From: Mesotaenium endlicherianum
Lineage: Eukaryota
Length of the DNA stretch: 64,000 bases
Reading direction: 5' to 3'
Assembly (NCBI GenBank): GCA_009602735.1
Contig: WELA01002573.1
Location: 1-64,000, forward strand
The notes beneath the pieces are model-generated. The model was not told the origin of the DNA, searched no databases, and saw only the letters and a program-made list of their open reading frames with translations. Both the position numbers and the translations under genes were made by a program. Shown here one piece after another: positions 33,492-64,000 of this stretch (positions are counted from its first letter, which is position 1; every line of letters starts with the position of its first letter).

Positions 33492-33562
<71 letters not shown>
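33457..33562. repeat. (TC)n microsatellite flanking the right end of element A
   Basis: Direct reading. Confidence 0.95.
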
Positions 33563-33567
<5 letters not shown>

Positions 33568-33614
33568 TTTGCTCTTTCTATCTCTCTGGGGTTCTCTCCT
33601 TCCTCTCTCTCTCT

Positions 33615-34159
33615 AAACTAACTTGCTGACACATTCTTTAACAACCTGGTGATTGCCTCAAGAATGCATCGATGGTGATTGGTTAGATAAATGTGCAAAT
33701 GACGCCTTAGGCAAATGGCGAATCGAGATAATAGGAGATGGTTGTGCATTGGGCTCACCAAGGTATTTTTTACGTTGTTATTTACCTCATAGACGGTGCC
33801 ACCCGATCTACGGAGCCATGGCATTGCCATTGAATAGTAAATTCATTCCATGTACATACGTTATATTTGCTTTCGAGATTAGCATTTGAGAACAAGGCCA
33901 ACTCTATGCAAAATCTAGTGATAAAAAATATGAAATTAAGCGTGCAAGTTGATACACAAACAGTATTTACCGCACTTATAAGATTGCTAATTGATTATTG
34001 CTGTTTCACTTACATTCGACTTATTGAATATACTTGCTCATATTGTATTGTTCTTCTGCTGTTAAATGAGTTAACCAAAACACCATAATGATTACTTGCT
34101 AATATAGAAAGATCTTCATTAAAATGTCAATTGCCTTCTGGTACGTTGATTTATTTTCA
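33615..34159 (+). mobile_element. Old, diverged, 5'-truncated LTR of family D
   Basis: Shares CTTGCTGACACATTCTTT, TTGAATAGTAAA.TCATTCCATGTACATA, GATTACTTGCT.ATATA and a terminal TTTCA with the LTR at 61488-62170. Confidence 0.8.
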
Positions 34160-34722
34160 AGACTCTTACTCTGGTTGCATTGCCTCCTCAGCTTGACGTA
34201 CCTGCTTGAACTTTGGTTGACTTGCCACACTTAGCCTGCCTCACTTGCTAACAATCCAAGCATACATCACAAAATGAGTTTACTATACAACTACAATGTG
34301 ATTACACCACATACTGATTATTTAACCATATTGGGACTTGGTCGGACTTCGGCTAACCAAATTCTCAACCAATTTCTATCAAGTCAAGTTGCCACCTGCC
34401 TGAGACATAATTTTAACAACTTCATGCTACATTGAACGTAAGTTAAGAGACTCAACTTCATTCAAAATGATAGCCAACTAAATAATCACGTTAGGAGTCT
34501 TGTCATGCCCGCTCTTGTCGAGTCCCTTTTGGTGTCTAGTGGTTTTCACTGAGGGTGGAGGGTTAATGACAGGTTCTAGTGGTTAGTCGGGTTAGGGTGG
34601 TAGGTGAGGATGTTCTAGTTCATGTGCAATAGTGGTGAACACTGGGACCCATGATCTGCTCACGAGGTTCTGCTGTTGAGCAGCTGTGAGGCTCCTCCCA
34701 GATCACGCGCTTTAATCTTTAT

Positions 34723-37700: not shown

Positions 37701-40030
37701 GTTCACAGTCATGCCTTTTGGGCTGACTAATGCACCTGCTACATTCATGGGACTCATGAATAGTATCTTCAGACCCTATCTAGACCAGTTTGTGGTGGTA
37801 TTTTTGGACGACATCCTGATTTATTTAAAGACCTTGGAAGAGCATGTGGAGCATCTGAGGAAGGTGTCGGAAGTCTTGAGAGATTAGAAGCTATATGGGA
37901 AGATGAGCAAGTGCGACTTCCGTCTCAAGGAGGTTGAGTTTTTTGGGCACATAGTGGGAGCTGAAGGAGTCAAGGTGGAGCAAAAGAAGGTGCAAGCAGT
38001 CAGAGATTGGCCGATACTTTCTGATATTCATCAACTCAGGAGTTTCCTCGGCATGGCAAATTATTATCGATGTTTCATTGAAGGATTTGCCAAGGTGTGT
38101 GCACCGCTCACGGACATGTTGAAGAAGCGGGAGAAGTGGCTATGGGGTGACAAAGAGCAGCAAGCTTTTGAGAAGATTAAGGAGCTGTTAACACAGGCAC
38201 CTGTGTTGGCAATTGCCAATCCAGAGCTTCCTTTCACCATCATCACGGACGCATCAAATTTTGCAGTGGGAGCCATTTTTCTCCAGGACCAAGGCAAAGG
38301 ATTGCAGCCTGTGGCATATAAGAGCAAGAAATTGAGTCCTGCTGAGCAAAACTATGCAGCACATGAGCGGGAGATGTTGGCTTTTATCCAGGCTTTGAGG
38401 ATTCGGCAATGTTATGTGGACGGCCGGAAGGTGTTCGTCAAGACCAACCACAAGAGCTTGGAGAAGTTTATGACGCAGCCAACATTGACACCAAGACAGG
38501 TAAGGTGGATGAAGTTTCTGCAACAATTTGACCACAAGATTGAGTACTTACCTGGGAAGATCAACCATACAGACGTTTTATCCAGGAGATGTGACCTTGC
38601 AGCTGTCTCAGTCATCAAGAAGAGTATGGACTTCAAGGAGAAGCTTCAGAGAGGTTATGAGGAGGACCCAGAGTTTGTTGATCGTGGAGCAGCTGAGTCC
38701 AACTCGAGTATGCAAAAGAAGGACGGCATATGGTATTATGGTGATTCCAAGAGAGTGGTGGTACCTGACATCAAGGAGCTACGAGACTTACTACTTGCGG
38801 AGCATCATGATTGCTTATATGCTGGACACTTTGGAAGCGAGAAGACGGCAAGCGTGCTGAAGCGAGAGTACTATTGGAGAAATATGGACAACGACATCGA
38901 GGAGTGGATCAGGAGTTGCGATGCGTGCCAGCGTAACAAGACACCAATCAAAAGAAGGGAGGTATCTTGCAACCCTTGCCTATTCCAGAGTATCCTTGGG
39001 AGCAGATTGCTATAAACTTCATCACGTCGTTACCAGTTAGTGGTCAAGGGCACGATGCAGTTTGGGTTGTATCTGATAGACTCAGCACAATGGCTCACTT
39101 CATTCCCATGAAGGAGACTTCTACGGCAGCGGATGTGGCACGGCTATTCTTTGATCATATGTTCAGGCTACATGGGTTGCCGAAGGTGATTGTTTCAGAT
39201 CGGGATCCAAGGCTTACTAGCAATTTTTGGCGGTCATTGTTTACTTTGATGGGGACCAAGTTGAGTATGAGCACTTCCTATCATCCTCAGACAGACGGGC
39301 AGAGTGAGAGGCTCAACAGAACACTGCAAGAGGTGCTCAGGAGTTTCACTATGGAGGACCCTTCAGAGTGGGATACGAAGCTACCAGGATTGGAGTTTGC
39401 TTACAACAACAGCACGCAGGGATCGACCAAGCAGTCACCATTCACTATGGTTTATGGGAGAGAAATATATCATCCAGGGAACATCTTGTTGGAGAAGGCC
39501 AAGGAGACTCAGGTTCCTACTACACAAGCTTTTATGAAGCAGATGGCCAAGACTTAGGATATGGCGAAGACGTGTATTCGGAAGGCACAGGAGGAACAGG
39601 TCAAGTATGCCAACAAGCACAAGAGGGAAGTGACATACCATGTGGGTGACAAAGTACTCTTGTCAACAGAGAACCTACCTTTCACGGGCAAGAGGAATCG
39701 CGGGCACGATTTACAGGTCCCTTTGTGGTGCTCAAGCAGGTGAATCCAGTGACCTACATGTTGGAACTTTCTTCAGGCTGGCGTATCCATGATGTGTTCC
39801 ATGAGTTGTTTGCGGCCATACGTTGACCCGAATGAAGGACATCCAGGACAACTACCTAGACCGCCACCACCGGTCGAGATCGATGATGTATTGAAGTATG
39901 AAGTGGAGGCGATTGTCGGCGATCGACGAGTCCAGCGAGATCAACGACTTGTTCAACAGTATCTGGTCAAGTGGAAAGGCTACCATGCGGACGACAACAC
40001 TTGGGAGTCGGAGGCCAACTTGACTCATTG
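34723..40030 (+). mobile_element. Element B: decayed Ty3/Gypsy chromovirus (5' LTR, PBS, gag, pol), cut at the chromodomain by element C
   Basis: LTR TG..CA at 34723-35453, related to LTR A; PBS TGGTATTGGAGC at 35456; gag with [14 protein letters not shown]; protease [25 protein letters not shown]; RNase H TDASNFAVGA; integrase HHD..GH..CDACQ, VSDRDPR, TDGQSERLN; chromodomain [23 protein letters not shown]. Multiple stops and frameshifts. Confidence 0.92.
35491..40030 (+). pseudogene. Element B gag-pol (PR-RT-RH-INT-chromo), disrupted
   Basis: ORF pieces 35491-36517, 36433-37665, 37903-39015, 38967-39557 and 39789-40030 carry the domains in Ty3/Gypsy order. Confidence 0.9.
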
Positions 40031-40570
40031 TGTAGTGATTTGAGTTATTATATATTAGTTTGCATATATTTTAATATTTTCACATATATTTCTAGTAGTA
40101 TTGTATAAAGTCAAGTGTGAATAGGTACTCTAGTAAATTGGTTCATGTTCTTTGAACCTTCCAAGGCATTTTCGAAGTTAGAGGAAAGACCTAGAAGAAC
40201 TCCATGTGGCAAAAGTCAAATGTGCCATTTTAAGGTCAAAAGGACATGTGTACATTATTCTAGAAAGAGGTGGCAAGTTTTGGGATGTGTTGGGTGCCAA
40301 CACATCAACATACACCTTCCTAGAAATTACTTATGTAGCAAGTATATAAACAAGAGCTAGAACATAGAAAGACATTCCAGAATCACTCTTGTACTTGCCA
40401 AAATCCAGAAATATATTAACTTTCAAGAAGCCATCTCTCTTTCAAGAAGCTACCACTTGTGTTCAAAGATCCTTGTCTTGAATAGATAAAGTATTCTGTT
40501 TTACTAAGTACTTTATCTATCTGTTTCACTACAGTGGTATCGGAGCTAGGCACTTTGGTAGCACAAGAAG

Positions 40571-41851
40571 ATGGCCGATCCTCAAGACCAACAGCAAGCT
40601 TTCGAAGGAAGCCCTTCCTCTCCAAGACACCCTCCTCCAGCGCCGATGGGAGAGCCCACTCAAGAAAATCTGCAACAACAAGAAGCACCACAAGGAGGAG
40701 CACACCCTCCTCCAGCGTCGATGGGAGAGCCTACTCAAGGAAATCTGCAACAACAAGAAGCACCACAAGGAGGAGCACCGTCAAATCCCGTGGCAGCCGC
40801 TATAGCAAAGTTGACCCCACCACAAGGAGTTCCCGCAAATGAGTGGGCAGCCTTCCTAATGACCGTCCACAACCAAGTGGGCTTGGCCACCTATGAAGCA
40901 ACCGTGCAAGCGTCAAGAGAAGCTATGGCTGCCATGGTTGCCCCTATTGCGAGCAATGCTCAAAATCCAGCCCCGGCTCAAGCGCCTCCACAAGAGCCAA
41001 CGAGAGCAAGGAAACTCATCAAGCCCGGCAAACCCGACACTTTCAACCCCGGGAAAGGTGCCAACCTGAATTTATGGCTCTACCAAGTGGAGACGTACCT
41101 CGCGTTCCTTGAAGTACCCGAGGAGGACTACGTTCCCTTTGCCGTTACCTTACTTAGAGGAGCAGCAACATCATGGTGGCGTAACTATCAAGCGGCTATA
41201 TATCAAGCTATGGCGCACCCCATGCTCGGCCAAGAGCCCCCACCATCATATGCAAGATGGGCAGATTTTCGTGAGGCCCTCAAGAAGCAATTCATGCCCA
41301 TCAATGCGGAGAAGATTGCCCGAGGAAAGCTCCACCATCTCAAGCAAACGACGTCCGTTCAAGAGTATACATCCAGATTTCACGCCCTCACTCTTGAGAT
41401 CCCCAACATGTCTCTCGAGGAGAAGATTGACCGTTACATCTTTGGCCTCAAACCCAAGGTGGCAAAGGAAGTGGAGTTACGCGACTTGACGGACTTCTCA
41501 AAGATCATTGAAGTGGCCCAAAAGGTGGATACCTTGGATTTCAAGCACTCCGTGCCTTCATCTTCACGGGTACCGACGACGCGGGTGTACGCAGCCCCTT
41601 CCACATCCGAATCTGGACCCACACCCATGGAAATCGGAGTTATTAAAAGGGACCCCGCGGCTGCCCGGAAGAGTGGAAGACCCTCCAATGACACTTATGA
41701 TGCAAGAAACCAGCAAGGAGTGAAAGCAAGACTCTCCCCGGCTGAAAAAGAAGCTCTCATGACGGCTGGACTATGCTTCTATTGCAAGGAAAAGGGCCAT
41801 CGTGCACTTTCATGCCCCAAAAAGTTGTCAAAAAACGGACAGCGCCGGTAG
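40571..41851 (+). CDS. gag: Element C Gag (open, 426 aa) with CCHC zinc knuckle
   Basis: Retrotransposon gag core ([27 protein letters not shown]), [23 protein letters not shown]; starts 25 nt after the PBS. Confidence 0.9.
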
Positions 41852-44800
41852 GCCAGGAGCCTACCACCCCAAGACCCACTTCACGAGAAGGCAACACGCC
41901 AAGTGAGGTGGAGACCCCCGTTGAAGACGACGTTCCAGCCCCAATGAGTTTGAGAGGTTACCTTGGAGGAGAGAAGGTCCACATCTTGGTGGATAGCGGA
42001 GCTCAAGGCAACTTCATTGCTGCAGATTTTGCCACCAAGCACGGTATTACTATGCGAACTCTTGACCACGACGAGGAGATTATGATGCCCGATGGATTCT
42101 CCTATACTACCCCTTCCAAGAAGACGTACCCCTTGGCACTCTCTATCAAGTCCTTCAAGGATAGAGTAGTGTTCTCCCCCATGCAATTGGGCAAGTACGA
42201 CGTCATCCTAGGGACGCCTTGGTTGACCAAGCACAACCCCCAAGTTGATTGGAGGACCGGTACTATCAAGATCAAGAATGACATCACTTCAAGAATCTGT
42301 ATTTTGCGCGCAATCCAGAATATCCAGACCCAAGACATCCAGAAGCCGGCACACGAGATACTATTGTCCGCCCTCCAACTCAAGAGACTTGTGAGGAAGG
42401 GACACGAGCTTCTTTTGGCCTTGATCACGCCAAAAGACATCAAGAAAGACATCGAGAGTCAAGAAGGCAGCCCCGTTCCCAAGGAGATACAAGAAGTCTT
42501 TGAGGACTACAAAGAAGTGTTCTCCCCGGAATTGCCCAAGGGCCTACCCCCCAAAAGATTCGTAGACCACAAGATAGAGTTGGAGCCCGGAAGCAAGCCC
42601 ATCTCTCGGCCTACGTTCAAAATGTCATACACGGAGCTAGACGAAGTCAAGAAGCAAATCAAGGAGCTACTGGAGCATGGCTTCATTCGACCTAGCAAGT
42701 CGCCATTTGGAGCCCCGGTGCTATTTGTCAAGAAGAAAGATGGTACCTTGAGGATGTGTGTGGACTATCGCGCCCTCAACAAGATCACCATCAAGAATCG
42801 ATACCCGCTGCCGCGCATGGATGAGCTCATGGACCGGCTGGTTGGAGCCAAGTACTTCACGAAGATTGACTTACGGAGCGGCTACCACCAGATTCGCATC
42901 GCAGAACCGGACATAGAGAAAACGGCATTCAGGACAAGATATGGACATTTTGAGTTCATGGTCCTGCCATTTGGACTCACCAACGCGCCAGCAACTTTCA
43001 TGACTATGATGAACACCATATTTCAACCCATGTTGGACAAATTTGTGGTGGTATTCATCGATGACATCCTTATCTACAGCAAGACCCTTGAAGAGCATGC
43101 GAGACACTTGAAAGAAGTCCTTGAAGTATTGAAGCAAAACAAGCTATTTGCGAAGGAGTCAAAGTGCGAGTTTGCCAAACAAGAAGTGGAGTTCCTAGGT
43201 CTCCACGTGACTGCTGATGGCATCAAGATGGACCCCAAGAAGACCATGGTGGTGGAGGAATGGCCAACTCCCACGACCAAGAAGAACTCCAATCGTTCTT
43301 GGGATTTGCCAACTGGTACAGGAGATTCATCCAGAGCTTCTCGCACATAGCAGCCTCTCTCACGGATCTACTGAAGAAAGACAAGCCATATGTTTGGAAG
43401 AAGAAAGAGGAGGAAGCATTCCAATAATTGAAGCAAAGATTGACGACATCCCCGGTGCTCACACTCCCAAGTCCAAACCCAGATTGGCCCTTCCACGTCA
43501 TCACCGATGCATCTTCCTGTGCAATAGAAGCAATCCTGTTTCAAGACCAGGGCAAGGGACTGCAGCCCATTTGCCTACGAGTCAAGGAAGCTAAATTCAG
43601 CCGAGCAAGATTATACAACCACGGAGCGAGAGGCCTTGGCTATTGTACATGCCTTGAAGGTTTGGCGCTGCTACGTTGAAGGATGCAAGGTGCTGGTCAC
43701 TACGGACCACGAGGCGTTGAAGCACCTCCAGACGCAGCCGTATCTCTCAAGGAGACAAGCAAGATGGAGTGGATACTTGCAACAATACAACATCATGATT
43801 CAGTACCAGCCCGGCAAAACAAGCCCGGCTGACCCCCTCTCAAGATTGCACTTAAACGCAGTGATGACAACCCTGAAGACTAATCTGAAAGCTCGATTTT
43901 CAGCCGCCTATGAAAGAGACCCTTACTAAAAGAACGGAGAAGCAGCCTTGGACCCACACAAGAAGCAAGAAGGCAATTATAAAGTGAGGCAAGATACGGG
44001 TCAAAGATGTATTCTTGATGACTTAGACCTCCGGCTCTTGCTTCTACGAGAAGCACACGACAACCCTCTTGGAGGACACTTTGGAATCCTAAGGACCACG
44101 GGCGTTCTAGCCAGGACTTATTGTTGGCCAGGCATGTCTAAGCAAGTCAAGGAGTACTACAGGTGTAGGGATTTCAATTATACTATATTAGTATGCATAT
44201 ATTTTAATACTTTTGAATATATTTGGAGTAGTATTGTGTGTAGTCAAGAATGAATAGATACTCTAGTGACTTAGTTCATGTCCTTTGAACCTTCCAAGGC
44301 ATTTTTGAAGTTAGAGGAAGGACCTAGAAGAACTCCATGTGGCAAAAGCCAAATGTGTCATTTTTTGGTCAAAGGGACATATATACATTATTCTAAAAAG
44401 AGGTGGCAAGTTTCGGGATGTGTTGGGTTCCAACACATCAACATACACCTTCCTATAAATTACTTATGTAGCAAGTATATAAACAAGAGCTAGAACATAG
44501 AAAGACATTCCAGAATCACTCTTGTACGTACCAAATTCCAGAAATACATTAACTTTCAAGAAGCCATCTCTCTTTCAAGAAGCTACCACTTGTGTTCAAA
44601 GATCCTTGTCTTGAATAGATAAAGTATTCTATTTTACTAAGTATTTTATCTATCTGTTCCACTACAGCAAGAGCTGTGACACATGCCAAAGAGTCGCGCC
44701 ATCATCACAAAAGGCGGGAGGACTTCTCCAACCACTACCAATCTCCGAAAGACAATAGACGGACATCTTGATGGACCTTATCGTGGACCTGCCCGTGACA

Positions 44801-45790
44801 CCTCGAGGCCATAATGCAATACTCACGGTGGTGGACAGACTTACTAAGATGGCTCATTTTAATCCCACGACGACTAAGGCTACAACACCACAACTTGCAA
44901 GACTCATCTTTGACAACATATTCCGACTCCATGAACTACCATCAAGAATTGTGTCGGATAGAGATCCAAGATTCACAAGCCATTTCTGGAAAAATCTCTT
45001 CAAGAACTTGGGTACATCGCTGGATATGTCCACTGCCTATCACCCGCAATCAGATGGGAAAATTGAGCGTATGAATTGTACCCTAAAGACCTCTAAAGGC
45101 CTACGTGTCTACTCTGGAGCACGATTGGGACATGTACTTGACCCCCCTGGAGTTTGCCTACAACAACACGACGCAGGCCTCTACCCAAAAGTCCCTATTC
45201 TTCCTCAACTATGGCTTCCATCCAACCACGCCGCTGAGCTTCACGGCAGGCCATGATGAAGTACCTGCAGCAACAGAATTTATAGAGACGTTAGATGCAG
45301 CCGTTACAACAGCGAGAAAAGCTCTATAACACGCGCAATATGCTCAAGCAAGAGTCGCAAACAGGTCCAGAAGAGAAATTACGTACAGATTCGGTGACAA
45401 CATGTTACTATCATCCAAGAATATTCCCTGAACAACAAGCCTGCCGGCAGCAAGTTCTCTCCCAAGTATTTGGGACCCTTCAAGATTATCCAGCAAGTCA
45501 ACCCCGTTGCTTTCAAGCTAGAACTTCCCCCGACTATGTACATCGACCCTGTATTCCACGCTTCCCTCTTCAAGCCATATGTGCAACCCGACAACAAGTT
45601 CCCAGGACGAGTGACAACCCCATCAGCCCCAACAATAGTGGATGATCATTTGGAGTACGAAGTGGAAGACATAGTGGCTATGAGAAATTTCAGGAGACAG
45701 CAGCAATACTTGATCAAGTGAAAAGGATATCCAGATTCTGAGAATAGTTGGGTGGCGGCGCACTACCTTGACAAAGTTCAGAGAAAGCTG
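41830..45790 (+). pseudogene. pol: Element C Pol (PR-RT-RH-INT-chromo), frameshifted and interrupted
   Basis: Open to about 43285, then frameshifts and stops; integrase zinc finger interrupted at 44164-44666. Confidence 0.9.
44164..44666 (+). mobile_element. Solo LTR of family C inserted into element C integrase
   Basis: 503-bp TG..CA copy of 40031-40533 with no PPT before it and no PBS after it. Flanks are ACAGG/GCAAG, and removing it restores VKEYCKSCDTCQR. Confidence 0.88.
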
Positions 45791-46339
45791 ACACGCTTCC
45801 ATGCCGCCAACCCCCATCTTGGAACAGCCCCAAGTCTCTCTACTAGAAGCCCAAAGACTTCAGGGAGGCAGCCTGCCACCATCAAGAAGCAGCAGAAGAC
45901 CCCTTGGAGGCAGCCTGCAAGAACCACAAAGAGGAAAAAATGACATTAGACACTTTTCTCTTCTCGCAGTTTCTGGACAGAAAACTTAAACTTATATTGG
46001 TGATAGGTCTCTGCATAATAAATTTTGAAGATTTACTTAGCTGTATTCCATGAGTAGCCGGTCATTTAAAATTCAAGTTTGCTCAATTTGGAGCACTGGT
46101 GAGCGAGATATGATGCTTTGAGTAGAAGGGGGTCAGGCTGCTCGCATTATTAGGGCAGAATATGCCTTCTGACATTGTGCCCTCTCTTGAACTTGGAATG
46201 CTCGAAAACTCAAGACTCTGGTAGTACATTTTACAGCGCCCATTTAGAGACTTACGATTTAAGCAGCCACCCAAGAGATATGGGTTGCGACGTCACCTAG
46301 ACCTGCATGTTAGCCAAAAGGTTAAGCCACCCGGGTGAT

Positions 46340-47163
46340 AAACTCGAGGAATGCATGCATGCGTTGTTAAAAGGTTGTGACGCAGCATGGGGACTCTCGA
46401 GAGAAAGATGCCTGCATGCATGTGCCTGGATAAGGCACGAGCAGTGCACGCGCTTACCTTATTCTCGCCGCACACATTTTGCCAAGAAGCAGAAGGAGAG
46501 CAGGAGAAAGAAGAGAAGAGGAAGAGAAGGGCGCGAAGGAGAAGGAGTTCCCAAGGCCATAGGAGAGCCAAAGAGACACGCTCCAACCGACGCACTGAGA
46601 TTCCCTCTCTTGGTGTATTATAGACAGGTTAAATCGACAAGTTCCCAAGAGGGATCTCGCTACTAGAAAGTAGAGAGCTTCTAGAATAGAATTGCTAGGA
46701 TTTCTAGCGCAGAATTGGATCAAACGCCACAAGCGTGCTAAAGCACATAAAATGGTGAGAGCTATCTTAGTTTCCAAGTTCTCAGAAGTCTCTATTGTCA
46801 AATTGCTGATAGCAAGAGCAGAGTGAATCGGCAAAGCTCTCAGTAAAGAACTGAGTGAGCCTAGTCAATAGTGTGAACTGCTACGGCGCGGTGTAGGGCA
46901 AAGAGCTCAAACCAGGCCATAGTTGCAGAGTTTAATAAGCTGTCTTTATAAAGTTAAGCGAAAGCCTTGGTGGGCGATTTTCTCTATACTTGGTGTTGTG
47001 TGTGTTCATCTGCTTAGACGTGATTTCTGCAAATTACAAATTTGTTCACTTGGTTAAATCTTCAGCGTGGGCGAAAGCCTATTTGGAAGTAAGGTGCTTC
47101 CGTCCTACTTCTGAGAACTTCAATTGATTGATTCAGGTGAACACGAGTTCCCAAGCAAATCGG
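46340..47163 (+). mobile_element. Diverged second copy of the element E leader/LTR-like region
   Basis: Collinear with about 51580-52420 (GCATGCATGC, AGAAGGAGTTCCCAAGGCCATAG, AGAAAGTAGAGAGCT, GTTCTCAGAAGTCTC, CTACTTCTGAGAACTT, TTCAGGTGAACA). Confidence 0.8.
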
Positions 47164-47904
47164 TGAAATAAATCGACTTACCAATAGGCAATTAACAGTC
47201 AATAAAGATCTTTATATTAGCGAGTAATCTTTATGGCATTTTATGTTGGCTGACTAAACAGAAAAAGACAAACGTACTAGCGGTGGACAATACTCGCAAG
47301 TCAAATGCAAGTAAACGCGCATCAATAATGCACTCAGTAAAATTATACATAAGCAAGGCTAGAAGACAGTGCGTACCAATGGCTTCTCGCCTTGGATTCA
47401 GATATCTCTCATTAAGCAGTACAAGAGAGCTGGTCTCGTTTTCAAATCTGAACTCGAGAGCAATCGTAGCATATGTACATGCAATGAGTTTACTGTTCAA
47501 CGGCAAGTGCGATGGCACCGCCTACCCGGGAGTTAACCACGTTGGTAAGACATCGGCTAAACAAATCCACAGCCATCTTCCATCATCTCGAATCGCACCC
47601 ATCGAGTGTCATCTGGCCACTCGTCTAGCACACCACACTTAGATGCATAGCTAGGCAGTTCGCTGCTGCCGAGTACGGCAGCCAGCTGACTGTCAAAGAA
47701 TGTGTCAGCAAGCTGACACAAGCCAACAGGCTGACCTAATGGACTTCAGCCTGCTGCTCTTGGCTGAGTCATTTAACTAAGTATTAAGTATTTAGCAATA
47801 TAAATACAGCGGACTATGTATTAACTAAAGTTCAGCGAGCTGAACTTATTTAACTATCATATCTAAATGAACATTATATCTATCCAATATACTGATTCAT
47901 TGCA
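47164..47904 (-). mobile_element. Family D LTR (reverse orientation), probably a 3' LTR
   Basis: Reverse-complement match to 61488-62170. Minus-strand purine tract TTGGAGGGAT lies immediately upstream (47914-47905), and the flanks ATCGG/ATCCC are not a clean TSD. Confidence 0.85.
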
Positions 47905-51141: not shown

Positions 51142-54089
51142 TATTGATGTCGCGATTGCTATCCACTTGACGGTGCCGCACGCGCAGCGCAAGTCGTGGC
51201 CGCCCAGGTACGGGAAGTCAGCATTGACTCACCGACCAGAGGACCAAGTTATCTCAGTTAGCGGTCATGTCAAAGTCGTTATCACTGTCAAATTGGTCAC
51301 GACACGTCAAACCCACACCCAGGAATGGATGGGGATTTGGTCGGAGTAGTCAGCTGAAAAACTAGGGATATGGAACCAGCAAGTGCCTGGAAAGGTGCTG
51401 ATCAATTGCCGATCTAAGCCAAGTACAGCAGGGATATTGCAGAGGCGTTGTGTGCGCCACCTCGGCCAAGACCCTCAGGTGTCTAGTCACGGCTTGAGCG
51501 TTCATTCTGAACAATGCCAGCCAGCCACATAGGCGTGAGTGCCAGCTGAAAGACTAAGCGGTCACGCGCGACAATCCCAGAGCATGCATGCATGCTGAAT
51601 GACAACTTCTAAGCTGTGTGAGAGCTGCTGGGTAAGGACGGCATGCAAGCTAAGCGCTGTGACTAAGCACTGGCATTCTCAAGAGAGGATAATGTGTGGT
51701 GCCTGTGAAAGGCACAAATCCTGCCTGAAGCTGCCTCACTCTTGCTCGCATCGTTGTCAAAGAAAGTTGAAGAAGCAGAAGGAGCGCGAAGAAGAAGGAG
51801 TTCCCAAGGCCATAGAAGAGACGTGGCGCCACGCTTTTGGCAACGCTGGAAGATTTCTTCCTAAGTGCATCATAGAAAGGTTAGACCGCAGGAGTTCCCA
51901 AGAGAGGGTCTCGCTGGTAGAAAGTAGAGAGCTGCAGAATAGAATCTGCTAGGAGATTGGCACAGATTTGGGTCACACACCACAAGCGTGCGAGGGACAC
52001 TTAAAATGGTGAGTGCTGTGTTAGTTTCCAGGTTCTCAGAAGTCTCAATTGTCGAATTGCTAATAGCAAGAGTAGCCTTAACAAGTAAAGCTCTCAGTGA
52101 AGAACTGAGTGAGTCTAGCCGAGCAGTGAAGAGCTGTTACGGTGCGGTGTTGAGTGAAGAGCCCAGACCAGGCCAGCATAGATATGCTGTTTCAGAATTT
52201 TGTAAGCTGTGACTTGTGGAAGTTAAGCAAAAGCCTTGAAGGGCGATCTTCTCTGAATCTGGCATTGCCTGTTAAGCTGCTTAGAAGTGATTTCTGCAAA
52301 TCACAAACCCGTTCATCCTGTAAACCCTCAACTTGTGCAAAAGCCTGTGTGGAAGTAAGACACTTCTGTTCTACTTCTGAGAACTTGATGATTGGTTCAG
52401 GTGAACAAGAATTCCCAAGTCAGTTGGGGATTGAGGCCTGTGAAGGCTGCCAGTGTTCAACCTGGAAGGGGACCTGGAGAAATTCAACTATATATGCGGT
52501 TGAGGAGTGGAAGACTCTACCACTCTGTGGAGCCTGAAGAAGGTTCTGATTCTAGCCAGAGTCCACGAGGAAGTGAGACATCTGAGCATACTGACAACCG
52601 GTGGAGTAAGCAACCGTTCAGAGACGAGTCTCGTTATATCTCCGCAAGCGGTGAGAACCCGGATAACACACAAGCCTTTGCACCTGATTTGGGCAGAGAG
52701 CAAGACGTGTGGGGAAGAGTCGGTGAGTCCTGGTCACCGTTTGAAATGGCCGATGATGATCGGGATGAAAATCCTAAGTTCAAGCTGTCTGCAAAGTGTT
52801 TTTAGGGACGAACCAGCGGAAACGATCTCACTTTCGAAGAGTTTGATGAGATCTATTGGGCAGAATTCTTTGAGAAGATTCGGAAGGATTCTTCTTATAC
52901 GCAATCTGTCGCATTTATAGACTTGGTTCAGTACTTGGACAAGGATGCCCTGCTGCTATATCGCCAATTCCGGAAGAATGAGGATCTCACCCAGGAATGG
53001 GCATTTGCAGAACAAAAAAGGGCAAGGGATTTGAAAATCCAGAAAGAGGCTGCGAAAGCCCGAATGTCTGCTTTATCTTCAGGAAGAACAGTGACAACAG
53101 CACTTGTTGAGAGCATAGACTTAGCTGCACTAACACAAGAATTAACAGAGGCCATGAGGCAACTCACTGAGGGTCAGCAAAGGGTTGCTACTCAGAGCGA
53201 TGATGCTGGCTCTGTCGCAGAATTGCGAAAAGTGTGTGCAGAATTGTCTGAAAAGATTGCTATTGCTCAGGAACGAGTACCACGCAGAGCTGCTCTCCCC
53301 ATGGTCAGCAAGGCGATAGCGCCACGACAAAGGGAAGGCATGTGCAAGCCTTGGCTAGCTGTGGTGAGGATATGGAGGCTGGGGATGACCAGCTAGACCC
53401 CAAGCATTGTCTGCGTCGTTCCTTTAAGTTGCTTGAAGCACGATTCCCAGAGGATCGCAGTCTTAAGGTGCACTGTTATGTGCATTTTGTCCGACAGAAG
53501 AACAAGACAGTCATGGAGGTTAAATCCAGATTGGTAGACCTCGCCAAAAAGGAAAAAATATACGAGCCCAGAATAGTGGCTGACAAGTTTCTGTTGTGCT
53601 TGGGCAAGGAAACAGATCGTGAAGTCAGGCCACATCTGTCCGCAAAGCACGGGATTGACTAGGACATCGACGAGACGGCTGAAATAGCACGCAATGTCAA
53701 AGAAGGTAAAGTGTGGTACAAAGAGGCTTCCAGGACGCTTATGGCTCCTGAGAGGAGGGAGGAATCCTCTCCACCTAAGGCCAACAACTCTAATTTTCAG
53801 TTTAAGAAAAAGAGCGGGTCTTTCAATAAGTTTGCTAAGCATGCCAACACTGCTGAAAAAGCAGAGAGCTGTTGGAATTGCGGGAAATCGGGACATCAAA
53901 AGAGGGATTGTTCGTACCCAGATGCTGAGCAATAATCTGCTGGCAAGGCACAGATATGTGCACATTGCAGCAAGAAGGGACATTCAGAAGATGAGTGCTG
54001 GTCTAAGAACCCAAAGTTAAAATCACCTTGGGCAAATGCTGCCACAAAAGAGGCAGACAAGGAAAGAAAGAAAGAAAAGGGTGGCTCTG

Positions 54090-54809
54090 TGAAATGAATC
54101 GACTTACCAAATAGACGATTAACAATTAATAAAGATCTTTATATCAGCAAGTAATCTTTATGGTATTTTCCGTTAACTAGTTAAACGGCAAAGGACAACA
54201 CACTAGCAGTGAACAATACTCGTAAGTCAAATGCGAGTGAACTAGCATCAATAATGCAATCAGTAAACTCATACATAAGCAAGGTTAGAAGACAGTGTGT
54301 ACCAATGGCTTGTCGCCTTGGATTCAATTTTATCTCAGTAAGCTGTGCAAGAGAGTTGGCCTCGTTCCCGAATGCTGAACTCGAGAACAATGCCTAGCAT
54401 ATGTACATGGAATGAGTTTACTGTTCAACGGCCAGTGCGATGGCACCGCCTGCCCGGGAGTTAACCACGTTGGTAGGACCTCGGCTAACCAAATCCACCG
54501 CCATCTCCCATCATCCCAAATCGCCATCCATCATAGGGATGTCATCTGGCCATTCATCTAGCATATCACACTTAGATGCATATCGAGGCAGTTCGCTGCT
54601 ACCGAGTACGGAACTCAGCTGGCTGTCAAAGAATGTGTCAGCAAGCTGACTTAAGTGGACTTCAGCCTGCTGCTTCCGGCTGAGTCATTAAACTGCTATT
54701 AAATATAAAGTCCAGCAGACTGATTATCAACTAGAGTTCAGTAGGCTAAACTTAAATAACTATTATATTTAAATGAATATTACATCTACTAATATACTGA
54801 TTCATTACA
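54090..54809 (-). mobile_element. Solo LTR of family D inserted in element E gag
   Basis: TG..CA ends, reverse-complement match to 61488-62170, TSD CTCTG/CTTTG. Excision restores the frame KEKGGSGNRKGNQKDEAMSAE. Confidence 0.92.
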
Positions 54810-56006
54810 CTTTGGTAATCGCAAGGGTAACCAGAAGGATGAAGCTATGAGTGCAGAAATCGCTGAGTTGAAAGCTCAGTTTGCGAAACTAAACGCGCCC
54901 AATGTCGACTATGATGCAGATATTGCAGAAAAGACCGTCTGCAAAGGCGAGAAGTTGATGCCTGAAAAGGTTGTGGACGTAACGGCTGCCGAGCAAGCAA
55001 ATCACAACCGTCTAGTGCCAAGGAATGCTGGGAAGCTTCCTCAAACTTTTCGGATCACTCTGGATGAAAATGAGACCTTGCAGCTACGACAAGCCAAGCC
55101 TGGGACGCGTAAAACATTTAGTTTTTCGCTGGAGAAGCTGAAGGCCTGGGTGGAACACCGGATCCAGCATACTCCTTTGCTCTCTCTCGCTGATTTGCAT
55201 ATCAGTTACCCATTCACAGTTGAAGAAGCCGGACATCAGCTGGATATGGCTGAGGAAGGTGCAAATAGCGCCTCATTGCCCACCAATTTCAGCACCGTGA
55301 GAGTGCAAAATAGGGATGGTGCATTAATCTTCAACAAATGGGCAGCTCCCAACATTTTGTTGGATGCAGGCGCACAGCCAGTCATCTTGGGAAAGCGAGC
55401 TCTGAAAGCTCTAGGATTGACGGCAAGGGACCTGAAAGAGAGCCCTTTCCAGTTGAGAACTGCCTCAGGACAAGTCTCAAAGTTTTGTGGGATTACCGCA
55501 AGCCTGTGAAAATCACAATAAATCCAGGGAAACCTGAAGAGGCATCACTACTCATGGAGTGCACAGTGACGGAGGCAGAGAACTATGAAATTCTCTTGGG
55601 AACAGAAGCACTGATTTCCTTGGGTATGGTCATTGATCTGCGGAAGCAGAGCGTGATTTACCAGTCAACAGATCGGCAGCCGGCAGGAGAAATTCCTGTG
55701 AAGATGGTCTGCACAGGAGAAGCAAACTACGGATTGCTAGACTGCTGCGTTAACGACAGGTACCCAGAAGCCGCCGACAACATCATGAAGCAAGAAGAGG
55801 AAGACTATACAAACATCAACATGCCAACACCCTTGGTATGGCAACCCCAGATCATGAAGCCGTTGGATACTGTGAGTAATAGGGATTGCGGCCCGCAAGA
55901 ATTGCTGCCAGTACCTTACCCAGTTACCTCCACTACAAATCTGATGCCTGGAGTTGAGCCACTGCCGCAAGGCATTGATAGGATGGAAGATCCTTTTCGC
56001 AAAAGG

Positions 56007-56970
56007 GGAGTAGTGGTGTTGGAATTATTCGTCGGACTTGGATCTGGAACCATAGCATTGATCCAGCGAGGAATACAGGTGGCCAAAGTCCTGTATGTGG
56101 ACAATGACGACCACGCTTTGCTAGCATTCCAAGAAGTCATGAGTAAGATGCGGCAAATGCATCTTTATAAAGGGTTGGCGCCCGCATATAGCAATGACGA
56201 GCGCATCGCCGGAGGCAACATTATCGATGTGAAGCCTGAACACCTGTATGGCTACAAAATTGACTGAATCTTTGTTGGATTTCCTTGTCAACCATTTTCT
56301 CAAGCTGGAAACCGGAGGGGATTCAGTGATCCACGAGCACAACACTGGGGATGGATAGTGAAAATCATCAGCAGGCTGCGGGAACGACAGCACTACTACC
56401 CACCAGTGTTTGTGATTATGAATGTACATCTAGAAATGGATTACAAGCAGATGAAGCCGGGAGAACCATGGCTGATTTTCAACTCCACTTTGGACCATCA
56501 TGTGCTAATCAACGACGCCAAGTACGGAGGATTATCCCATAGGGCCAGGATATTTTGGACCCAAGGCATATCTATTGAGGTCCTGAGGGAGATGGAGGAC
56601 ATTACACGGCAATCACCAACCGCATTGACAGTGAAATAGGCGCTGGCGGTGCATACCAGACTAGTGGTCAGGAGGGATTCCTATCCACAGTGTGTCATCA
56701 ATGAACCAGATCAGCCAAGGGTGGTACTGCCAACCTTCACAGCATATCCAAGATCCCGAGCCTTCATAGAAGGTGGACCAGGACTGGTCAAAGGCATGCA
56801 TGAAAGAAACGCCGTTTGGAGAGAGCCTGCTGCGGTAGAGAAGGGCAAATGCCTTGGAATACCCGACAACATAGCTCGGCATATAGCCGGTGCTGTAGGG
56901 TCAGATGAAGCTGCAAAGATTTTTGGCAACATGATTGGGCAGCACTCTATGACTTGGTTGGTGGAAACAA
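56007..56970 (+). pseudogene. C5 DNA cytosine methyltransferase domain within the element E polyprotein (two in-frame stops)
   Basis: One reading frame: motif I VLELFVGLG; II YVDND; III GNIIDV; IV ID*IFVGFPCQPFSQAG (PC at 56283-56288); V GFSDPR; VI FVIMNV; VIII SHRARIFW; IX WREPAAVEKGKCLGIP; X KIFGNMI. Stops at 56265 and 56637. Confidence 0.88.
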
Positions 56971-59149
56971 TCATGACAAGGCAGCAGCTGACTTTCACTG
57001 ACAAGCCTCTGTCGAGAACAAGACCAGTGACAATTGGAGTCAACGTGGTGCTAACATCTGATCAAAGAGCTATCAGGACGGCACACCAGCAACAAGAAGA
57101 ATACGGTGTGCAAAGAGACGTAGCGGAAGCTGCTAGAGACAAAGCACTCAGGGAAGCTAGGGTGGCTGAATGTAGGAGATGCCAGGATCTGTTGGACCGG
57201 ATTGATAATCGGACCAATGAATTACAAGCACCTCTGGAAAGAGAAGATACACCCATGGGGGACCAAGCACCTGAGCAGGCAACGGCGCTGCCAACTGCAG
57301 AAGACGATACGCAGGACACCCCATCATCTGCAAAAAACGCCACTCACAGCCAGATATTTGGGAGCTCACCTCCCGGAGCCATGACATTACGACGTGAGGA
57401 GACTCCAGAAGATGCCAGATCAGGGTATGATACTAACCGCAGTCCAAGAGCAGCTGGGCGCGGAGACTACTGACAAGAAAGCTCAAGTAGCTGGGAAGCT
57501 AACCAACAGTGTCTGTTGTCTTCACCAGAGCAAGCGCCGTTACAAGACATGTCAGAAGAATCTGAGAAGAAGACTCCCGAGCCAACGCCTGAAGAAATTG
57601 GATTTTATCTAAACGAAGCAATAGAGCGAGAACGCCAGTGCAATATTGGTGAATGGGCTGAAGAGAGTAGCCAAAATTCATGAGATTCTGAAAGGTCTGC
57701 AAAGACCATATGCCTCGAAGTGATATTCGAAGAACTCCAGGAGGAGTTGGACAAGAAATTATCTACAAAACCTGCTTTAGTGAGCCCAGAGCCGCAGGCT
57801 AAGGGGCAACAGCAGGGTTCAGCTAGTCAAACAGCTGAATCCATTACAAGGCAGATCATCGAGCACAAGGAAAAAGAAGTGGCTAAGGCAGCAAGCACGC
57901 TGTAATCAGCCATTGTCAACTTGGCAAACCTCAACACAGATAATGATGAAGAGCCGCCACCACCTAGAGTGGAGACGTCAGTTGAAGATGACGCAGAAAT
58001 GCCAGACCTGCCAGGGTTTGACCTGCCGTCAGTCACCAATGAAGAGGAGATTCAGGAAGAAATTCCACGTTTTCCTACTCCAGAGCTGGATCTGTTGGAG
58101 CTACAAGAGCTCAGGACGGATGACTGGGTGACCGACCACTTGGTAATGGAGGGGCCCAGCCCATCAGATCTATACAACAATCTGAGGTCGCCTACATCCA
58201 GCACTCCAACCACCAGTTTGCCAGTACCAGAAGCTACCCCCCATCAGTTACAACAGCCGCAGGAAGTGGCTGCCTATACCGCTAAGGTGGAACCAACACA
58301 AGGTAATTCTCGCGGTCGTGCAAGCAGACCAAGGAAGGTAGCCCGGGAACGGAATGCACCTTTTAGGCGCATGCTGATGCGTTATCTCAAGTATAGGGGA
58401 ACAGCTCAAAGAGAAGCGGTTCCGAAAGGAACCATGGCTCCACCTCCGCAACCTATCTTAGAGATTCTGCAGAGAGAAGGAGAGGATGGCTTGATTCGCA
58501 AAGCCATGGCACTAGGAATTCACATTCCCATGGTGTGTCCGTCATCCATTGGAACGTGGGAAAAGGACAGTTCAGCTCCTAGGACATCTGCAATTTTTGA
58601 AAGGGAACTGGTAGAGCTGAGAAGCATCATAAGCCGCTTGACAGCAGAAAATGTTGTATACGCACGACTAGCTGCGGCTCAAAGACAGCAGACTTTGACA
58701 CAAGCATGGACGGTTACGCCACCAGCCAGGGAGGAGTTTGGCACAACCGTTGCGCGCATTACTACTATTGAGCGCGAATGGGGTTGGAAAATTGACCCCA
58801 GGGCAGATCCAGCAGGGTGGCCGTTGCCAAACCCGCCCCCGCCACGTGAAGAGGGAGGAACAGGGACCAGCTGGACTGTTGCAGATGAAAAAAGGTTCTT
58901 GAGGCAGCCCATCCGGAGGCGTCTGACATACCCCAGTCAACACGAGAGTCGACGATCCATCGGAAAAGGTAAAAAGCCTAGGAAACAAGCCGCCGAGCCT
59001 AAAGCAGCGGAGGAGCAAGCTACGAAGTTTGCCACTCCACCTCCTAACAATCAGGCAAAAAAGCCTTAAGGTCAGGATGAGGGCGAAAAACCCCCACCTG
59101 AACCCAAAGAGTAGCAACTACTGGATGCGTGTGTTGAGGAAAAGCAGCT

Positions 59150-61487
59150 GGAAACTGAGATTTTCACCATCAAAAAAATGGTCTCAGCCCAACAGAGAGC
59201 ACAAGTAGAAAGGCTGCTGAAAAAGCACCGCAAGGTGATCTCTCTAACCAAGGAAGAGATCGGTAGAACCACTGCCAGTGTGTGTGAGATCACACTAACT
59301 ACTGATAACCCAGTCAGACTTGGGCCGCATAAGCTCAGTCAGACCGAATGAGACTCTGTGGAGAAAACTTGACAGGAGCTGCACAAGCTCGGTATGATTG
59401 AGAAATCAACCTCAGTACATGGAGCTCCCACAGTAGTAGTTGCCAAGAAGGACGAGGCTGGCAATTATACAGCCACTCGTATGTATGGAGATTATAGACG
59501 ACTGAACCTTCACACAGAGCCAGACAGCTATGTGATGCCTACACCAGAGCGGATCTTTGCGATTGCTACCACCGGGAAGGTGTTCAGCATCAACGATCTA
59601 CACCAAGGCTTCAACCAGATCCCTGTGAAAACAGAAGATCGAGGTAAGATCGCTTTCAGGGCCCAAAGGGAACTTTGGCAATGGACGGTAATGCCGTTTG
59701 AGCTGAAAAATGCCCTAGCCATCTTTTAGAGGACTATGGACAAAGTGCTGGAGGCGCTGGATTCTGCAAAATCATACATTGATGACGTGGTGGTGTTCAG
59801 CAAGTCCATAGAGGAGCATCTCAAACACTTGGAACAAGTGTTCCAGCGCCTGGAGAAATTCCAGATGACGCTGCACCCTGGAAAGTGCAGATTCTTTGAG
59901 GCACATGTGCCTTACTTAGGACATGAGATTGGGAACAATGCTATGTCCCCTCAGGCTGTAAAGACTGAAGCCATTTACAAGATACCTGCACCGACAAATG
60001 TGTCTAAGCTGAAAGCCCTGTTAGGGCTAAGCGAATACTATCGTAAACTTGTGAAGGATTAAAGCAAAATTGCTAAACCCTTGACAGAACTCTTGAAAAA
60101 GGACGTACCTTTTGTGTGGACGGAAGCCTAGGAGAAGGCCATGAACGAGCTCAAGGAGCGGCTGGTAACGGCCCCAGTTTTGCGAACGCCCGACTACTCC
60201 AAGCCGTTCAGTCTACCCACAGACTGGAGTCGTGTGGGAATCGGCGCAGTACTCACGCAGGCCGCAAGTCCTAGAGAGGAGTACGTCATTGCCTATGCCT
60301 CGCACTCTAACAACCGAGCGGAGAGCAACTACTCGACCTACGAAGGAGAGCTGCTGGCAGTGGTTTGGGCTGTTGCACATTTCAGAGAGTATCTATGGGG
60401 AAGACTCTTCTTGCTGATCACATATCACTCGCCGTTGCTCTGGCTGATGAAGAATGGAGACCTCATTGGTAAATTGGCTCGCTGGGCTCTTAAGCTCCAT
60501 GAGTACCAGATGACAGTGATACATCAAGCAGGTATACTCAACAACAACGCCGATGGACTTAGCAGGAACTTGGACCCATCCGCAGACAACAGAACGGGAG
60601 CTCGAGAAGACGAAGATCCGAGCAGCCCAGCAGAATTGGCAGCCTGCCTGACCGAAATGGCTAGAATGATAGCGTCAGGAGAAGTTGAGCCTCTACCCCT
60701 GTTCAGTCCAGAGATCTGGAAGGATCAAGCCACTATGCATTGGCTGAAGACGGGAGTCCACATGGAAGAAATATCGGGGAAAGAAAAGGACCAGGTGAGC
60801 CATCGAGCTAAAAGGTTTTGCTGGAAACGCAATAACCTTTTCAAGATTGAAGAAACTGGTCAGGAGAAGTTGGTGCCAGAACCCACCAAAAGGCGAGCTC
60901 TGGTGCAGGAAATGCACGAGAATACTGGACACTATGGTGTCAAGAAGACATATCATCTTCTGGAGCTGTCTTACTGGTGGAGGGGCATGAAGCAGCAGTG
61001 TGAGGATGTGATCAAGCCCTGCAAAAGCTGCGATCGCGTTAAGGCTGGTTTCATGCAACAACGCCCACACCTGCAATCTCTGCCAATCATGGGCCTAGGC
61101 TACCGCTGGAACTGCGATCTCGCAAGAGAGCTACCGCTGTCCAAGCGAGGTAACAAGTACATTATGGTCATGATTGAGCATTTTTCTAAGTGGATAGAGG
61201 TTGTACTTCTAACTGCTAAGGAAAACTTGGGGACCCTGGAAGCCCTTCTCAACGGTGTGATTGTACGTCATGGAGCTCCAGCAGAAGTGCTGACAGACCA
61301 GGAGTTTGAGTTCCAAGGATCTTTTCAGAAACTCTTGAACAAATGCTTCATTGACCATCGCATTACGTCAAGAGATCACCCACTGGCAAATGGTCTAGCA
61401 AAACGGATGGTGCAAACCATAAAGTCTGCTTTGCGCAAATTTTGCCTTGAGCACAACAAGCGTGATTGGGATCTGGCTTTGCCATGG
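59150..61487 (+). pseudogene. pol: Element E RT, RNase H and integrase (disrupted, truncated by element D)
   Basis: ORFs 59394-59729, 59736-60062 and 60141-61487 lie in one frame, separated by stops. Confidence 0.92.
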
Positions 61488-64000
61488 TGTAATAAATTAG
61501 TATACTTGTTGATATAATATTTATTTAAATAATATAGTTAAATCTGTTCAGCCTGCTGAACTCTAGTTAATGACTTGGCCGGAAGTAGCAGGCTGAGGTC
61601 ACCTTAAGTCAGCTTGCTGACACATTCTTTGACAGCCAGCTGACTTCCGTACTCGGTAGCAGCGAACTGCCTCGATATGCATCTAAGTGTGGTATGCTAG
61701 ATGAATGGCCAGATGACATCCCTATGATGGATGGCGATTCGGGATGATGGGAGATGGCGGTGGATTTGGTTAACCGAGGTCCTACCAACGTGGTTAACTC
61801 CCGGGTAGGCGGTGCCATCACACTGGCCGTTGAATAGTAAACTCATTCCATGTACATATGCTAGGCATTGCTCTCGAGTTCGGCATTCGGAAACGAGGCC
61901 AACTCTCTTGTACAGCTTACTGAGAGAGATCTGAATCCAAGGCGAGAAGCCATTGATACGCACTGTCTTCTAACCTTGCTTATGTATGAGTTTACTGATT
62001 TGCATCACTGATGCTAGTTTACTCGCATTTGACTTACGAGTATTATTCACTGCTAGTGTATTGTCCTTTGCCGTTAAACCAGTTAACGAAAAAATATCAT
62101 AAAGATTACTTGCTGATATAAAGATCTTTATTAATTATTAATCGCCTATTTGGTAAGTCGATTCATTTCAGTGGTATCGGAGCAGTTATCACAGTCTTCT
62201 TTGTATGGTAAGGACAAGGTCTCAAACTAGCAACTCCCGAGACATGGAGAACCAGGATAACGAGAATGTCAAAAACCAGGCGGAAAGCCATGTAGCGGGA
62301 AACCGTACCTATTCGGAAGCAGTAGCAGATACTGCAGCTAGGGAGGCTGCAGATGAGGCAGCTGCTATTGCCGCAGTTGCAGCTCAACAAGCTGAGGAGG
62401 AGAGAGCCAGGCTAGAAGCTGAACAAGTAGCAAAGGCCGCTGAAGATACAGAAAGGAGGGAAAGACAGCCAGCTGACGAGCGCACTGTCGAGGAAATCAT
62501 GGCATCAAGGGCCAATGTTTTGAACCCACCTCCTGCTGTACAACTCAATGTACCCCTAGGTCAAATACGTGATCGGCTGAATGCGGCAGGAATTGCTGCT
62601 GCAGGAGCGAGAGGGATTGTTGAGGACACTACTCAGCGAGTAGATACCAATGCTGCCGCTGCATTTGCTAATCTACCACCCCAAAGTGTAGACTTGGGAG
62701 CTTTGTTCGTTCAGATGCAATCGCAAACGGCGACCATGTATCAGTCCCAAGAGGAGGACAAAAGAATCATAATGTCCCTATTGCAGGACAAAGACCAACT
62801 GGGGTCTCACACCACTAGTGGTGGTGGCCGAGGGCCTAGTAAGCCCAAGCCGAAACCTCCCCAGGAATATGATCCTGAGGGGAACTGAAAGTATTACCTG
62901 ATCAAGTTTCTCGCGGATGTTGAGCAGTGGCTGGAGAACTACCCAGAACTGCAAGATTACGAGAAGGTCAGGCACACTGGTGCGCTAGTGAAAGGTAGTG
63001 CCGCAGACTGGTGGCTTTACTGGAAGGGGGAGCGTAAGGCTCGGCAACTCGGTGACCCTACGTGGGTAGAGTTTGTCGAGAAGTTGCATGAGAAGTTTGA
63101 TGTCATCAACCAGCAGGAGAAAGCTATCTATGCGATGATCTCCCTGACACTGAAGCAGACCACTTCAGTTGCTGAGTTTGCTCAAAAGTTCCAAGAGAAC
63201 ATGATGAAGCAGCCAGATTTGCCAGAACGGTATAGGATAGCATACTTCAGGTATGGCTTGAAATCCGAGGTCTCTGGTCATTTTGCTGAGAAAAAGTATG
63301 AGAAACTGGCTGACTTGATCCAGGATGCTGACGCCTGGGATCAGCAGCAGTTCAATCACAAGCGCCAGAGTAACGCTTTGGTGTCTAACATTGTCAAGAA
63401 GCCCCACGGTTCCTACAATGCAATTGAAGGAGACCAGGCTGAGGATAATCAGGGTGATGAATATGGGTATGAGTACAATGCTATTCAGTCTAGAGGTAGA
63501 GGTGGTCCCTCTCGAGGTGGCTATGGAAGGGGTGGTGGTAGGACTAAGCCGAGACCAGCCTCAGCAAAATCTACTTGCTACCATTGTCAGCAGAAAGGCC
63601 ACTACAGAGAACAGTGTCCGGTCAAGCACCTGCCTAAGGTCGAGAGAAAAGACCAGCCTTTAAAAGACAGCAACAGTCAGTAATCCAGTCTACTGACTGT
63701 GAGGATGCTAGAGATAGTGAGTCGTCACTAGCTGCCCTCGTAGCAGGTATTATGGGTCCTGCTGAACTGGATTCACTATGCATGCCTGACAACCAGATAA
63801 AGGAGACCATCAGCAATATAGACGTCCAGAGAGTGCACACTCTGGATGCTCTTGTTCCACCTGATGTCCAACATTTCTTTGCTACGTCAGGAGAACAATG
63901 CGAAAGTCAGGAAAAGACAGTCCCCCCTATCCTACTGCATTGCATGATTGCAGGTAGGAAGGTGAGGGCATTTGTTGACGGAGGGGCGTCACATACTTTT
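61488..64000 (+). mobile_element. Element D: Ty3/Gypsy 5' LTR, PBS, gag and start of pol (runs off the window)
   Basis: LTR TG..CA at 61488-62170; PBS TGGTATCGGAGC at 62172; gag 62205-63683 (MVRTRSQ.., LKQTTSVAEF, CYHCQQKGHYREQC) with one in-frame TGA at 62886; the -1 frame is open to AFVDGGASHTF (protease) at the window end. Confidence 0.92.

Follow-up and report, generated by a model that had tools for sequence, protein, structure and literature searches.

The window analysed here comprises 64,000 nucleotides of contig WELA01002573.1 from Mesotaenium endlicherianum, a zygnematophyte green alga, and harbors element E, a Ty3/Gypsy retrotransposon in which a C5 cytosine methyltransferase domain lies between the aspartic protease and the reverse transcriptase (RT). 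A single frame, (position-1) mod 3 = 2, spans 55311-61515 with 12 in-frame stops, and its translation with X at the stops contains, in this order, the C-terminal half of the protease, DNA_methylase, RVT_1, RNase H, the H2C2 finger and the integrase core (Table 1). The succession of protease, RT, RNase H and integrase is that of Ty3/Gypsy elements. A previous sequence-only reading of the window had placed the methyltransferase in one frame with the C-terminal half of the protease, RT, RNase H and integrase, which proved correct; the integrase it listed does possess both finger and core, but ends at 61487, where another element interrupts it.

The stretch 55983-56990, translated with X at the stops, matched PF00145 with an E value of 1.1e-13 and 51.8 bits (cut-off 22), confirming the expected DNA_methylase match, and with E 3e-12 within the whole-frame read, while the unaltered open reading frame (ORF) 56268-56636 matched PF00145 on its own (E 5.6e-10). 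Since this match covers profile positions 3-119 only, the C-terminal motifs rest on the whole-length alignment to relatives and on the predicted fold, which spans methyltransferase residues 1-336. The motif set described earlier was recovered in canonical order without rearrangement, except that motif VI reads MNV instead of ENV. The stop at 56265 indeed precedes the catalytic motif, with GFPCQPFS starting right after it at 56277, but a second stop within the enzyme, at 56637, had been overlooked. The window copy, with these two stops in its frame and the motif VI Glu missing, retains motif I, the catalytic Cys and both motif VIII Arg residues. Over 108 relatives, the catalytic Cys and the motif VI Glu are each conserved in 107, and the two motif VIII Arg residues in 107 and 104.

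A profile of 65 aligned family members was compared with solved structures and matched DNMT3A/B (E 1e-24) ahead of DRM (5e-13), HhaI (1e-10) and DNMT2 (5e-6). The predicted structure of the methyltransferase (pLDDT, the predicted local distance difference test, 89.8; Foldseek E 8.5e-13) had DNMT3B as its top VIA match, with Z 26.6, a root-mean-square deviation of 2.9 and 273 aligned residues, so that DNMT3 also ranks first in the fold search, by a small margin. Judged by family profile and predicted fold, the enzyme is DNMT3-like and nearer to DNMT3 than to DRM, DNMT2 or bacterial enzymes.

The protease remained below the cut-off of Pfam gag-asp_proteas (E 7.6e-4), and a local profile built from relatives matched both of its halves (E 1e-14 and 9e-13). 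The N-terminal half (ILLDAGAQ) lies in a different frame from the C-terminal half, which indicates one frameshift near 55500. When the solo long terminal repeat (LTR) upstream of the protease is removed together with one 5-base target duplication, frame arithmetic alone brings the N-terminal half into the frame of the last gag ORF, as the sequence-only reading had stated. The ancestral gag-PR-DNMT-RT-RH-INT polyprotein that it proposed has unbroken counterparts, with zinc knuckle, protease, DNA_methylase, RT, RNase H and integrase all in a single ORF in P0153, and the same complete arrangement plus a PHD finger in one ORF of P0005. Enzyme and RT are 816 residues apart in the window copy vs 107-217 in nine same-order relatives. 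The spacer in between found no match in Pfam, in Atlas (longest ORF only) or in the proteins fetched for comparison, and is multi-copy in the DNA-run contigs described below. In the Pfam scan, a weak Tle3_C match (E 0.017, below cut-off) was taken as chance.

Table 1. Coordinates of element E and of the family F sequences inserted into it
Feature	Position	Strand	Remarks
Putative 5' LTR of element E	51148..52422	+	TG...CA, ~1275 bases; left end supported, right end inferred
Gag region	52494..54089	+	interrupted by stops and a frameshift near 53293
Zinc knuckle	53867-53914	+	Pfam zf-CCHC E 4.6e-6
Second knuckle-like motif	~53955-54000	+	seen by reading the sequence; without Pfam match
Solo LTR, family F (unrelated Gypsy, far more abundant)	54090..54809	-	between gag and protease
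Aspartic protease	55333..55640	+	frameshift-split near 55495-55500; active-site Asp 55365
DNMT3-like C5 cytosine methyltransferase (predicted)	56007..56990	+	motif I 56028; catalytic Cys 56286; motif VI 56418 (Glu missing); motif VIII Arg 56541 and 56547; motif X 56925; stops 56265, 56637
In-frame spacer	56991..59180	+	730 residues, five stops in this copy
Reverse transcriptase (YIDD) and RNase H	59181..60506	+	RVT_1 E 1.5e-23; RT_RNaseH E 8.6e-32; five stops
Integrase (H2C2 finger and core)	60882..61487	+	Integrase_H2C2 E 6.3e-15; rve E 6.1e-8; cut at 61487
Family F Gypsy element	61488..64000	+	inserted in integrase; 5' LTR 61488-62170; gag from ~62250; Ty3_capsid E 1.8e-9

Relatives were collected through the RT-integrase part, where the best 120 of 122 were examined, and through the enzyme. 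A homologous methyltransferase of 180-340 residues was present in 15 of the 120 RT-integrase relatives and a remnant in two; the closest ones with 93-100% cover, P0004, P0005 and P0007 (46-48% identity), carry the enzyme before the RT in unbroken ORFs. A word-based enzyme search among longer proteins returned nothing in 2479 candidates, and a HMMER search of representatives succeeded with 596 clusters at E <= 0.001, the best 150 of which were analysed (24-34% identity). According to local profiles, 96 of these 150 bear a retroelement domain in the same ORF and 53 are enzyme-only ORFs. The 96 comprise 20 with the arrangement of the window, protease-enzyme-RT (order A), 75 with RNase H-enzyme-integrase (order B), and one other. 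Hosts were named for nine of the 19 order A proteins looked up, namely Klebsormidium nitens, Mesostigma viride and seven Closterium. The order B lineage, whose proteins include P0161, P0128 and P0130, is also represented in metagenomes, and its host range rests on one name, Scenedesmus sp. PABB004 (protein KAF8056149.1, one of ten looked up).

Trees were computed with FastTree and LG+G4, the careful trees being subsets of 34 and 37 rows with every second order B protein and with duplicates dropped; the RT tree of relatives omitted 10 of the 120 matches for short cover, and the enzyme trees excluded proteins with untellable order and matches under 230 residues. In the RT and RNase H trees the window groups with order A (support 100/96 with 34 rows, 100/95 with 37 rows), and orders A and B form sister groups (100/99) among 37 rows including 17 other Gypsy elements, with the B-like P0110 falling outside. 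The enzyme trees split A from B along one branch, with a support of 99 (109 rows) and of 97/94 (bootstrap not settled), and the window enzyme joins order A; the order A profile scores it at 188 bits and the order B profile at 159. These trees show that the methyltransferase is co-inherited with the RT. As the enzyme trees have no outgroup, they do not distinguish one capture followed by a move from two captures.

Copies within Mesotaenium were followed in contigs from three DNA runs of one sample, in which many diverged contigs together span the whole of element E. For run X1, contig depths sum to ~31,000-37,000 across RT and RNase H, ~10,000-16,500 across the enzyme and ~7,000-15,000 across the spacer, with single contigs at ~60-70. 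Such sums are not copy numbers; as a rough estimate from them, the family apparently has hundreds of copies. Unlike the window, 16-18 contigs (99-100% of the depth in a DNA run) have a motif VI codon for the conserved residue. The 57471 stop and both frameshifts are likewise sites where other copies deviate from the window, an additional base being found at 55495 in 1-2 contigs and near 53293 in 5 contigs per DNA run. Majority differences between contigs and window number 20 in 56275-56611; in 12 of them the window shows a C-to-T or G-to-A change and in one the reverse, an excess that would fit a decay of methylated DNA once the element had inserted, its probable cause. RNA reads on 56240-56660 numbered 2, 0 and 0 among 6.9, 9.3 and 12.3 million, counted without a control stretch. 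Family F inserted twice into element E, once as the solo LTR at 54090-54809 and once as the element from 61488 that cuts the integrase. With the enzyme stops, the lost motif VI Glu, the frameshift and these two LTR insertions, the window copy of element E is dead.

Almost certainly, element E is one decayed member of a Ty3/Gypsy family that is abundant in Mesotaenium and has a DNMT3-like enzyme fused between protease and RT. By analogy with the biology of LTR retrotransposons, intact members would produce a single polyprotein that is cut by its own protease inside the particle, where the enzyme would be packaged with RT and integrase beside the nascent complementary DNA (cDNA). DNMT3 enzymes carry out de novo methylation. 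The enzyme of element E may likewise methylate cytosines de novo, probably at CG, as DNMT3 and the yeast result for SymbioDIRS-Dnmt3 (introduced below) suggest, and new cDNA could thereby enter the genome already marked like host DNA, or resist editing. Given protease cleavage inside the particle and de novo DNMT3 activity, we infer methylation of the element's own new cDNA as the likeliest role, and regard this choice of target as an evenly balanced proposition. The joint reading, a decayed DNMT3-bearing Gypsy family whose enzyme methylates its own fresh cDNA, is somewhat favored.

Several observations weigh against this account. The window sequence alone scores HaeIII first, with HhaI likewise above DNMT3. 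The fold comparison, for which the family alignment had guided the structure model, put two enzymes close behind DNMT3, namely a bacterial CpG methyltransferase (4dkj, Z 25.5) and HhaI (Z 24.4). The branch of the window enzyme is 2.3 vs 0.5-0.9 in same-order relatives, with its placement flagged as unsure. The rows of differences between the window and other copies list neither the stop at 56265 nor that at 56637, both of which lie near the ends of the compared stretch. Concerning function, yeast expressing the Klebsormidium Gypsy enzyme showed no methylation, a result called inconclusive in that study (PMC5890265). The CpG observed/expected ratio is 0.53-0.61 in element E vs 0.46-0.64 in neighboring Gypsy elements in which no methyltransferase was seen; a ratio no lower than that of the neighbors leaves no self-methylation footprint, and CpG and CHG depletion along the window gave no signal specific to element E. 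SymbioDIRS-Dnmt3 is likewise reported in PMC5890265 to be without extra CpG loss.

The enzyme might instead act at or after integration on the target site and flanking chromatin, silencing the new copy and limiting harm to the host, with a C-terminal PHD finger on the integrase steering it. This option is named in PMC5890265, and it suits the sister lineage of order B, in which the enzyme adjoins the integrase and elements usually end in a C-terminal PHD finger (29 of the 32 order B relatives that show RT, RNase H, enzyme and integrase have one 3' of the integrase). Within order A such a finger was seen in P0005 and P0023, but P0274 is without it, the window integrase is cut upstream of any PHD position, and the enzyme sits between protease and RT, far from the integrase; for element E this alternative is unlikely, though worth keeping in view. 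Improbable as well is the case of an enzyme that is active in the clade as a whole but whose role was lost or changed in the Mesotaenium family, be it toward another sequence context, toward RNA or an RNA-DNA hybrid, or toward binding without catalysis. Here the enzyme branch of 2.3 contrasts with an RT branch of 0.63, no relative exceeds 34% identity among the best 150 of 596 clusters, and the spacer of the Mesotaenium family is 600-700 residues longer. Set against this, other copies keep the motif VI Glu, the window itself has lost neither motif I nor the catalytic Cys nor either motif VIII Arg, and part of the long branch is private decay, as reflected in the 12 of 20 majority differences that are C-to-T or G-to-A with one reverse.

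A separate insertion or host-gene capture private to the window copy, or a chance motif match, could be suspected from run X1, in which RT and RNase H have 2-3 times the depth of the enzyme. The depth over the enzyme is nevertheless more than 100 times that of single contigs and similar to the depth over protease and spacer, the frame is continuous from the protease, residues 1-500 align in one piece with a Klebsormidium protein (E 1e-28), RT and enzyme trees agree, and no termini of its own were seen. Unbroken relatives with the same domain order refute the private-insertion or chance reading, which we consider very remote indeed. The sequence-only reading would have been refuted by an independent insertion that other copies lack, but the segment is multi-copy and occupies an identical slot in relatives.

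The fused, DNMT3-bearing design is not new in principle. KnitGypsy-Dnmt3 of Klebsormidium nitens is described by de Mendoza et al. (2018, PMC5890265) as an intronless Dnmt3-related enzyme inside the Pol of a Gypsy element, a precedent closer than the general one of retrotransposon-borne DNMTs that the sequence-only reading had cited, since it is a charophyte Gypsy with Dnmt3 inside Pol. Both elements share Gypsy RT, RNase H and integrase, the intronless Dnmt3-related enzyme in Pol and a streptophyte algal host. The domain order of KnitGypsy-Dnmt3 was taken from the partial protein GAQ93235.1 (P0139), which ends after the enzyme, runs knuckle-protease-methyltransferase and lies on the same side of the enzyme tree as the window. 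Judged by sequence, element E is thus assigned to the KnitGypsy-Dnmt3 kind, a design already published in 2018. It differs in its host, Mesotaenium, in its ~25% identity to P0139, in an enzyme-to-RT spacer much longer than in relatives, and in apparently hundreds of copies vs 33 DNA_methylase genes in all in K. nitens, as given in the supplement to PMC5890265. The same source reports purifying selection on the Klebsormidium enzyme, treats the Gypsy-borne DNMT3 as an acquisition of the Klebsormidium lineage with few copies, names a DIRS-like repeat layout for KnitGypsy-Dnmt3 in the legend of Fig. 4c, and proposes the self-methylation idea.

SymbioDIRS-Dnmt3 of Symbiodinium resembles element E in having a Dnmt3-type enzyme inside the Pol ORF, with two alternative domain orders there, and methylates CG de novo in yeast, according to PMC5890265; it is a dinoflagellate DIRS element with a tyrosine recombinase, in contrast to the DDE-type integrase of the window. 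EpiLTRs and DAM-LTRs, as described in bioRxiv 10.64898/2026.05.21.726589, are Ty3/Gypsy-like elements of green algae with DNA methyltransferases plus a chromatin reader, but what they bear is an adenine methyltransferase together with a chromodomain and, 3'-terminal in pol, a DNMT4-sister enzyme, and a 'Gypsy-DNMT3' of streptophytes is kept apart from them there. A search for the element names turned up only these two sources. In the portions seen, PMC12344493 and PMC6338049 merely cite the KnitGypsy-Dnmt3 work, and PHD fingers are described as common in retrotransposons (PMC11982613, PMC9861306, PMC9998398, PMC6673714). No published description was found for Mesotaenium, Closterium, Mesostigma or chlorophytes, nor was the order B sister lineage, with its enzyme between RNase H and a PHD-tipped integrase, in a literature search that left most subscription journals and Repbase outside.

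It is conceivable, though short of an even chance, that a large and old green-plant Gypsy clade captured DNMT3 once, before the split of chlorophytes and streptophytes, and then came to hold it in two slots, between protease and RT in streptophyte algae and between RNase H and integrase in chlorophytes, with KnitGypsy-Dnmt3 as one twig. If so, the PHD-bearing elements would combine a histone reader with a writer of de novo methylation, and their hundreds of copies in Mesotaenium could have left an imprint on the methylome of land plants' sister lineage. The window holds a dead copy that was interrupted twice; elements of this design abound in Mesotaenium and also occur in Mesostigma and Closterium, with the catalytic residues retained in hundreds of diverged relatives. 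Owing to this abundance and conservation, the question of how a silencing enzyme of its own benefits a retrotransposon becomes testable, with many intact natural enzymes and a cultured alga at hand. Counts of DNMT genes in algae may also be inflated by such elements, or genes may be missed.

Some relatives depart from orders A and B. P0109 and P0110 show a third arrangement, RT - RNase H - methyltransferase - PHD - integrase, which, on an RT outside the A+B clade, could be a module transfer. The order B protein P0024 has a weak match to an adenine methyltransferase (MethyltransfD12, E 0.003, below cut-off) behind its PHD finger and may carry both kinds of methyltransferase. In P0022 and P0027, also of order B, only ~40 residues around enzyme motif I are left between RNase H and integrase, possibly through loss or strong divergence, while in the eukaryotic P0129, nested among order B enzymes, the RT is directly followed by the enzyme. 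Nine PHD-bearing relatives in the same RT clade have no visible methyltransferase in ORFs that begin 110-240 residues before the RT, and owing to these short starts a loss is not claimed.

Element E had been thought to start at 54815, but its actual left end is near 51148, since unrelated letters precede this position in 81 and 83 contigs of two DNA runs; the insertion point lies within a 35-base stub of a family F LTR. The 3' half of its putative LTR, 51759-52430, is 77% alike to 46507-47166, where the match stops at the same CA. A target duplication was looked for around the repeat at 46507-47157 and none was found, and a further family F solo LTR lies next to this LTR-half copy at 47164-47904. 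No tRNA primer site of standard type was recognised 3' of the putative LTR (52423-52440), no tRNA genes were found in the 64-kb window, and the Pfam scan gave no capsid match in the gag region. The 3' end of element E, with the integrase C-terminus and 3' LTR, lies beyond the window, behind the family F element, in which the site at 62172 is presumably a Met-type primer site. The 720-base family F solo LTR at 54090-54809 is 87% alike, inverted, to 61479-62170 and flanked by the target duplication CTCTG/CTTTG (4/5 bases alike); no joint spanning its site was among the 15 contig joints listed, 470 more of which exist.

Element E is surrounded by a nest of Gypsy elements, including a chromodomain-bearing one at 40030-45942 (Chromo E 7.9e-11), whose integrase contains a solo copy of its own LTR family at 44163-44667, and a further one at 36433-39557. 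The window starts with plant telomere repeat (1-119), followed on the minus strand at ~1700-5400 by a host gene for an RRM protein, whose exon 2037-2222 (-) encodes 62 residues with 100% identity over 94% to a Mesotaenium endlicherianum protein, the next matches being at 61-67%.

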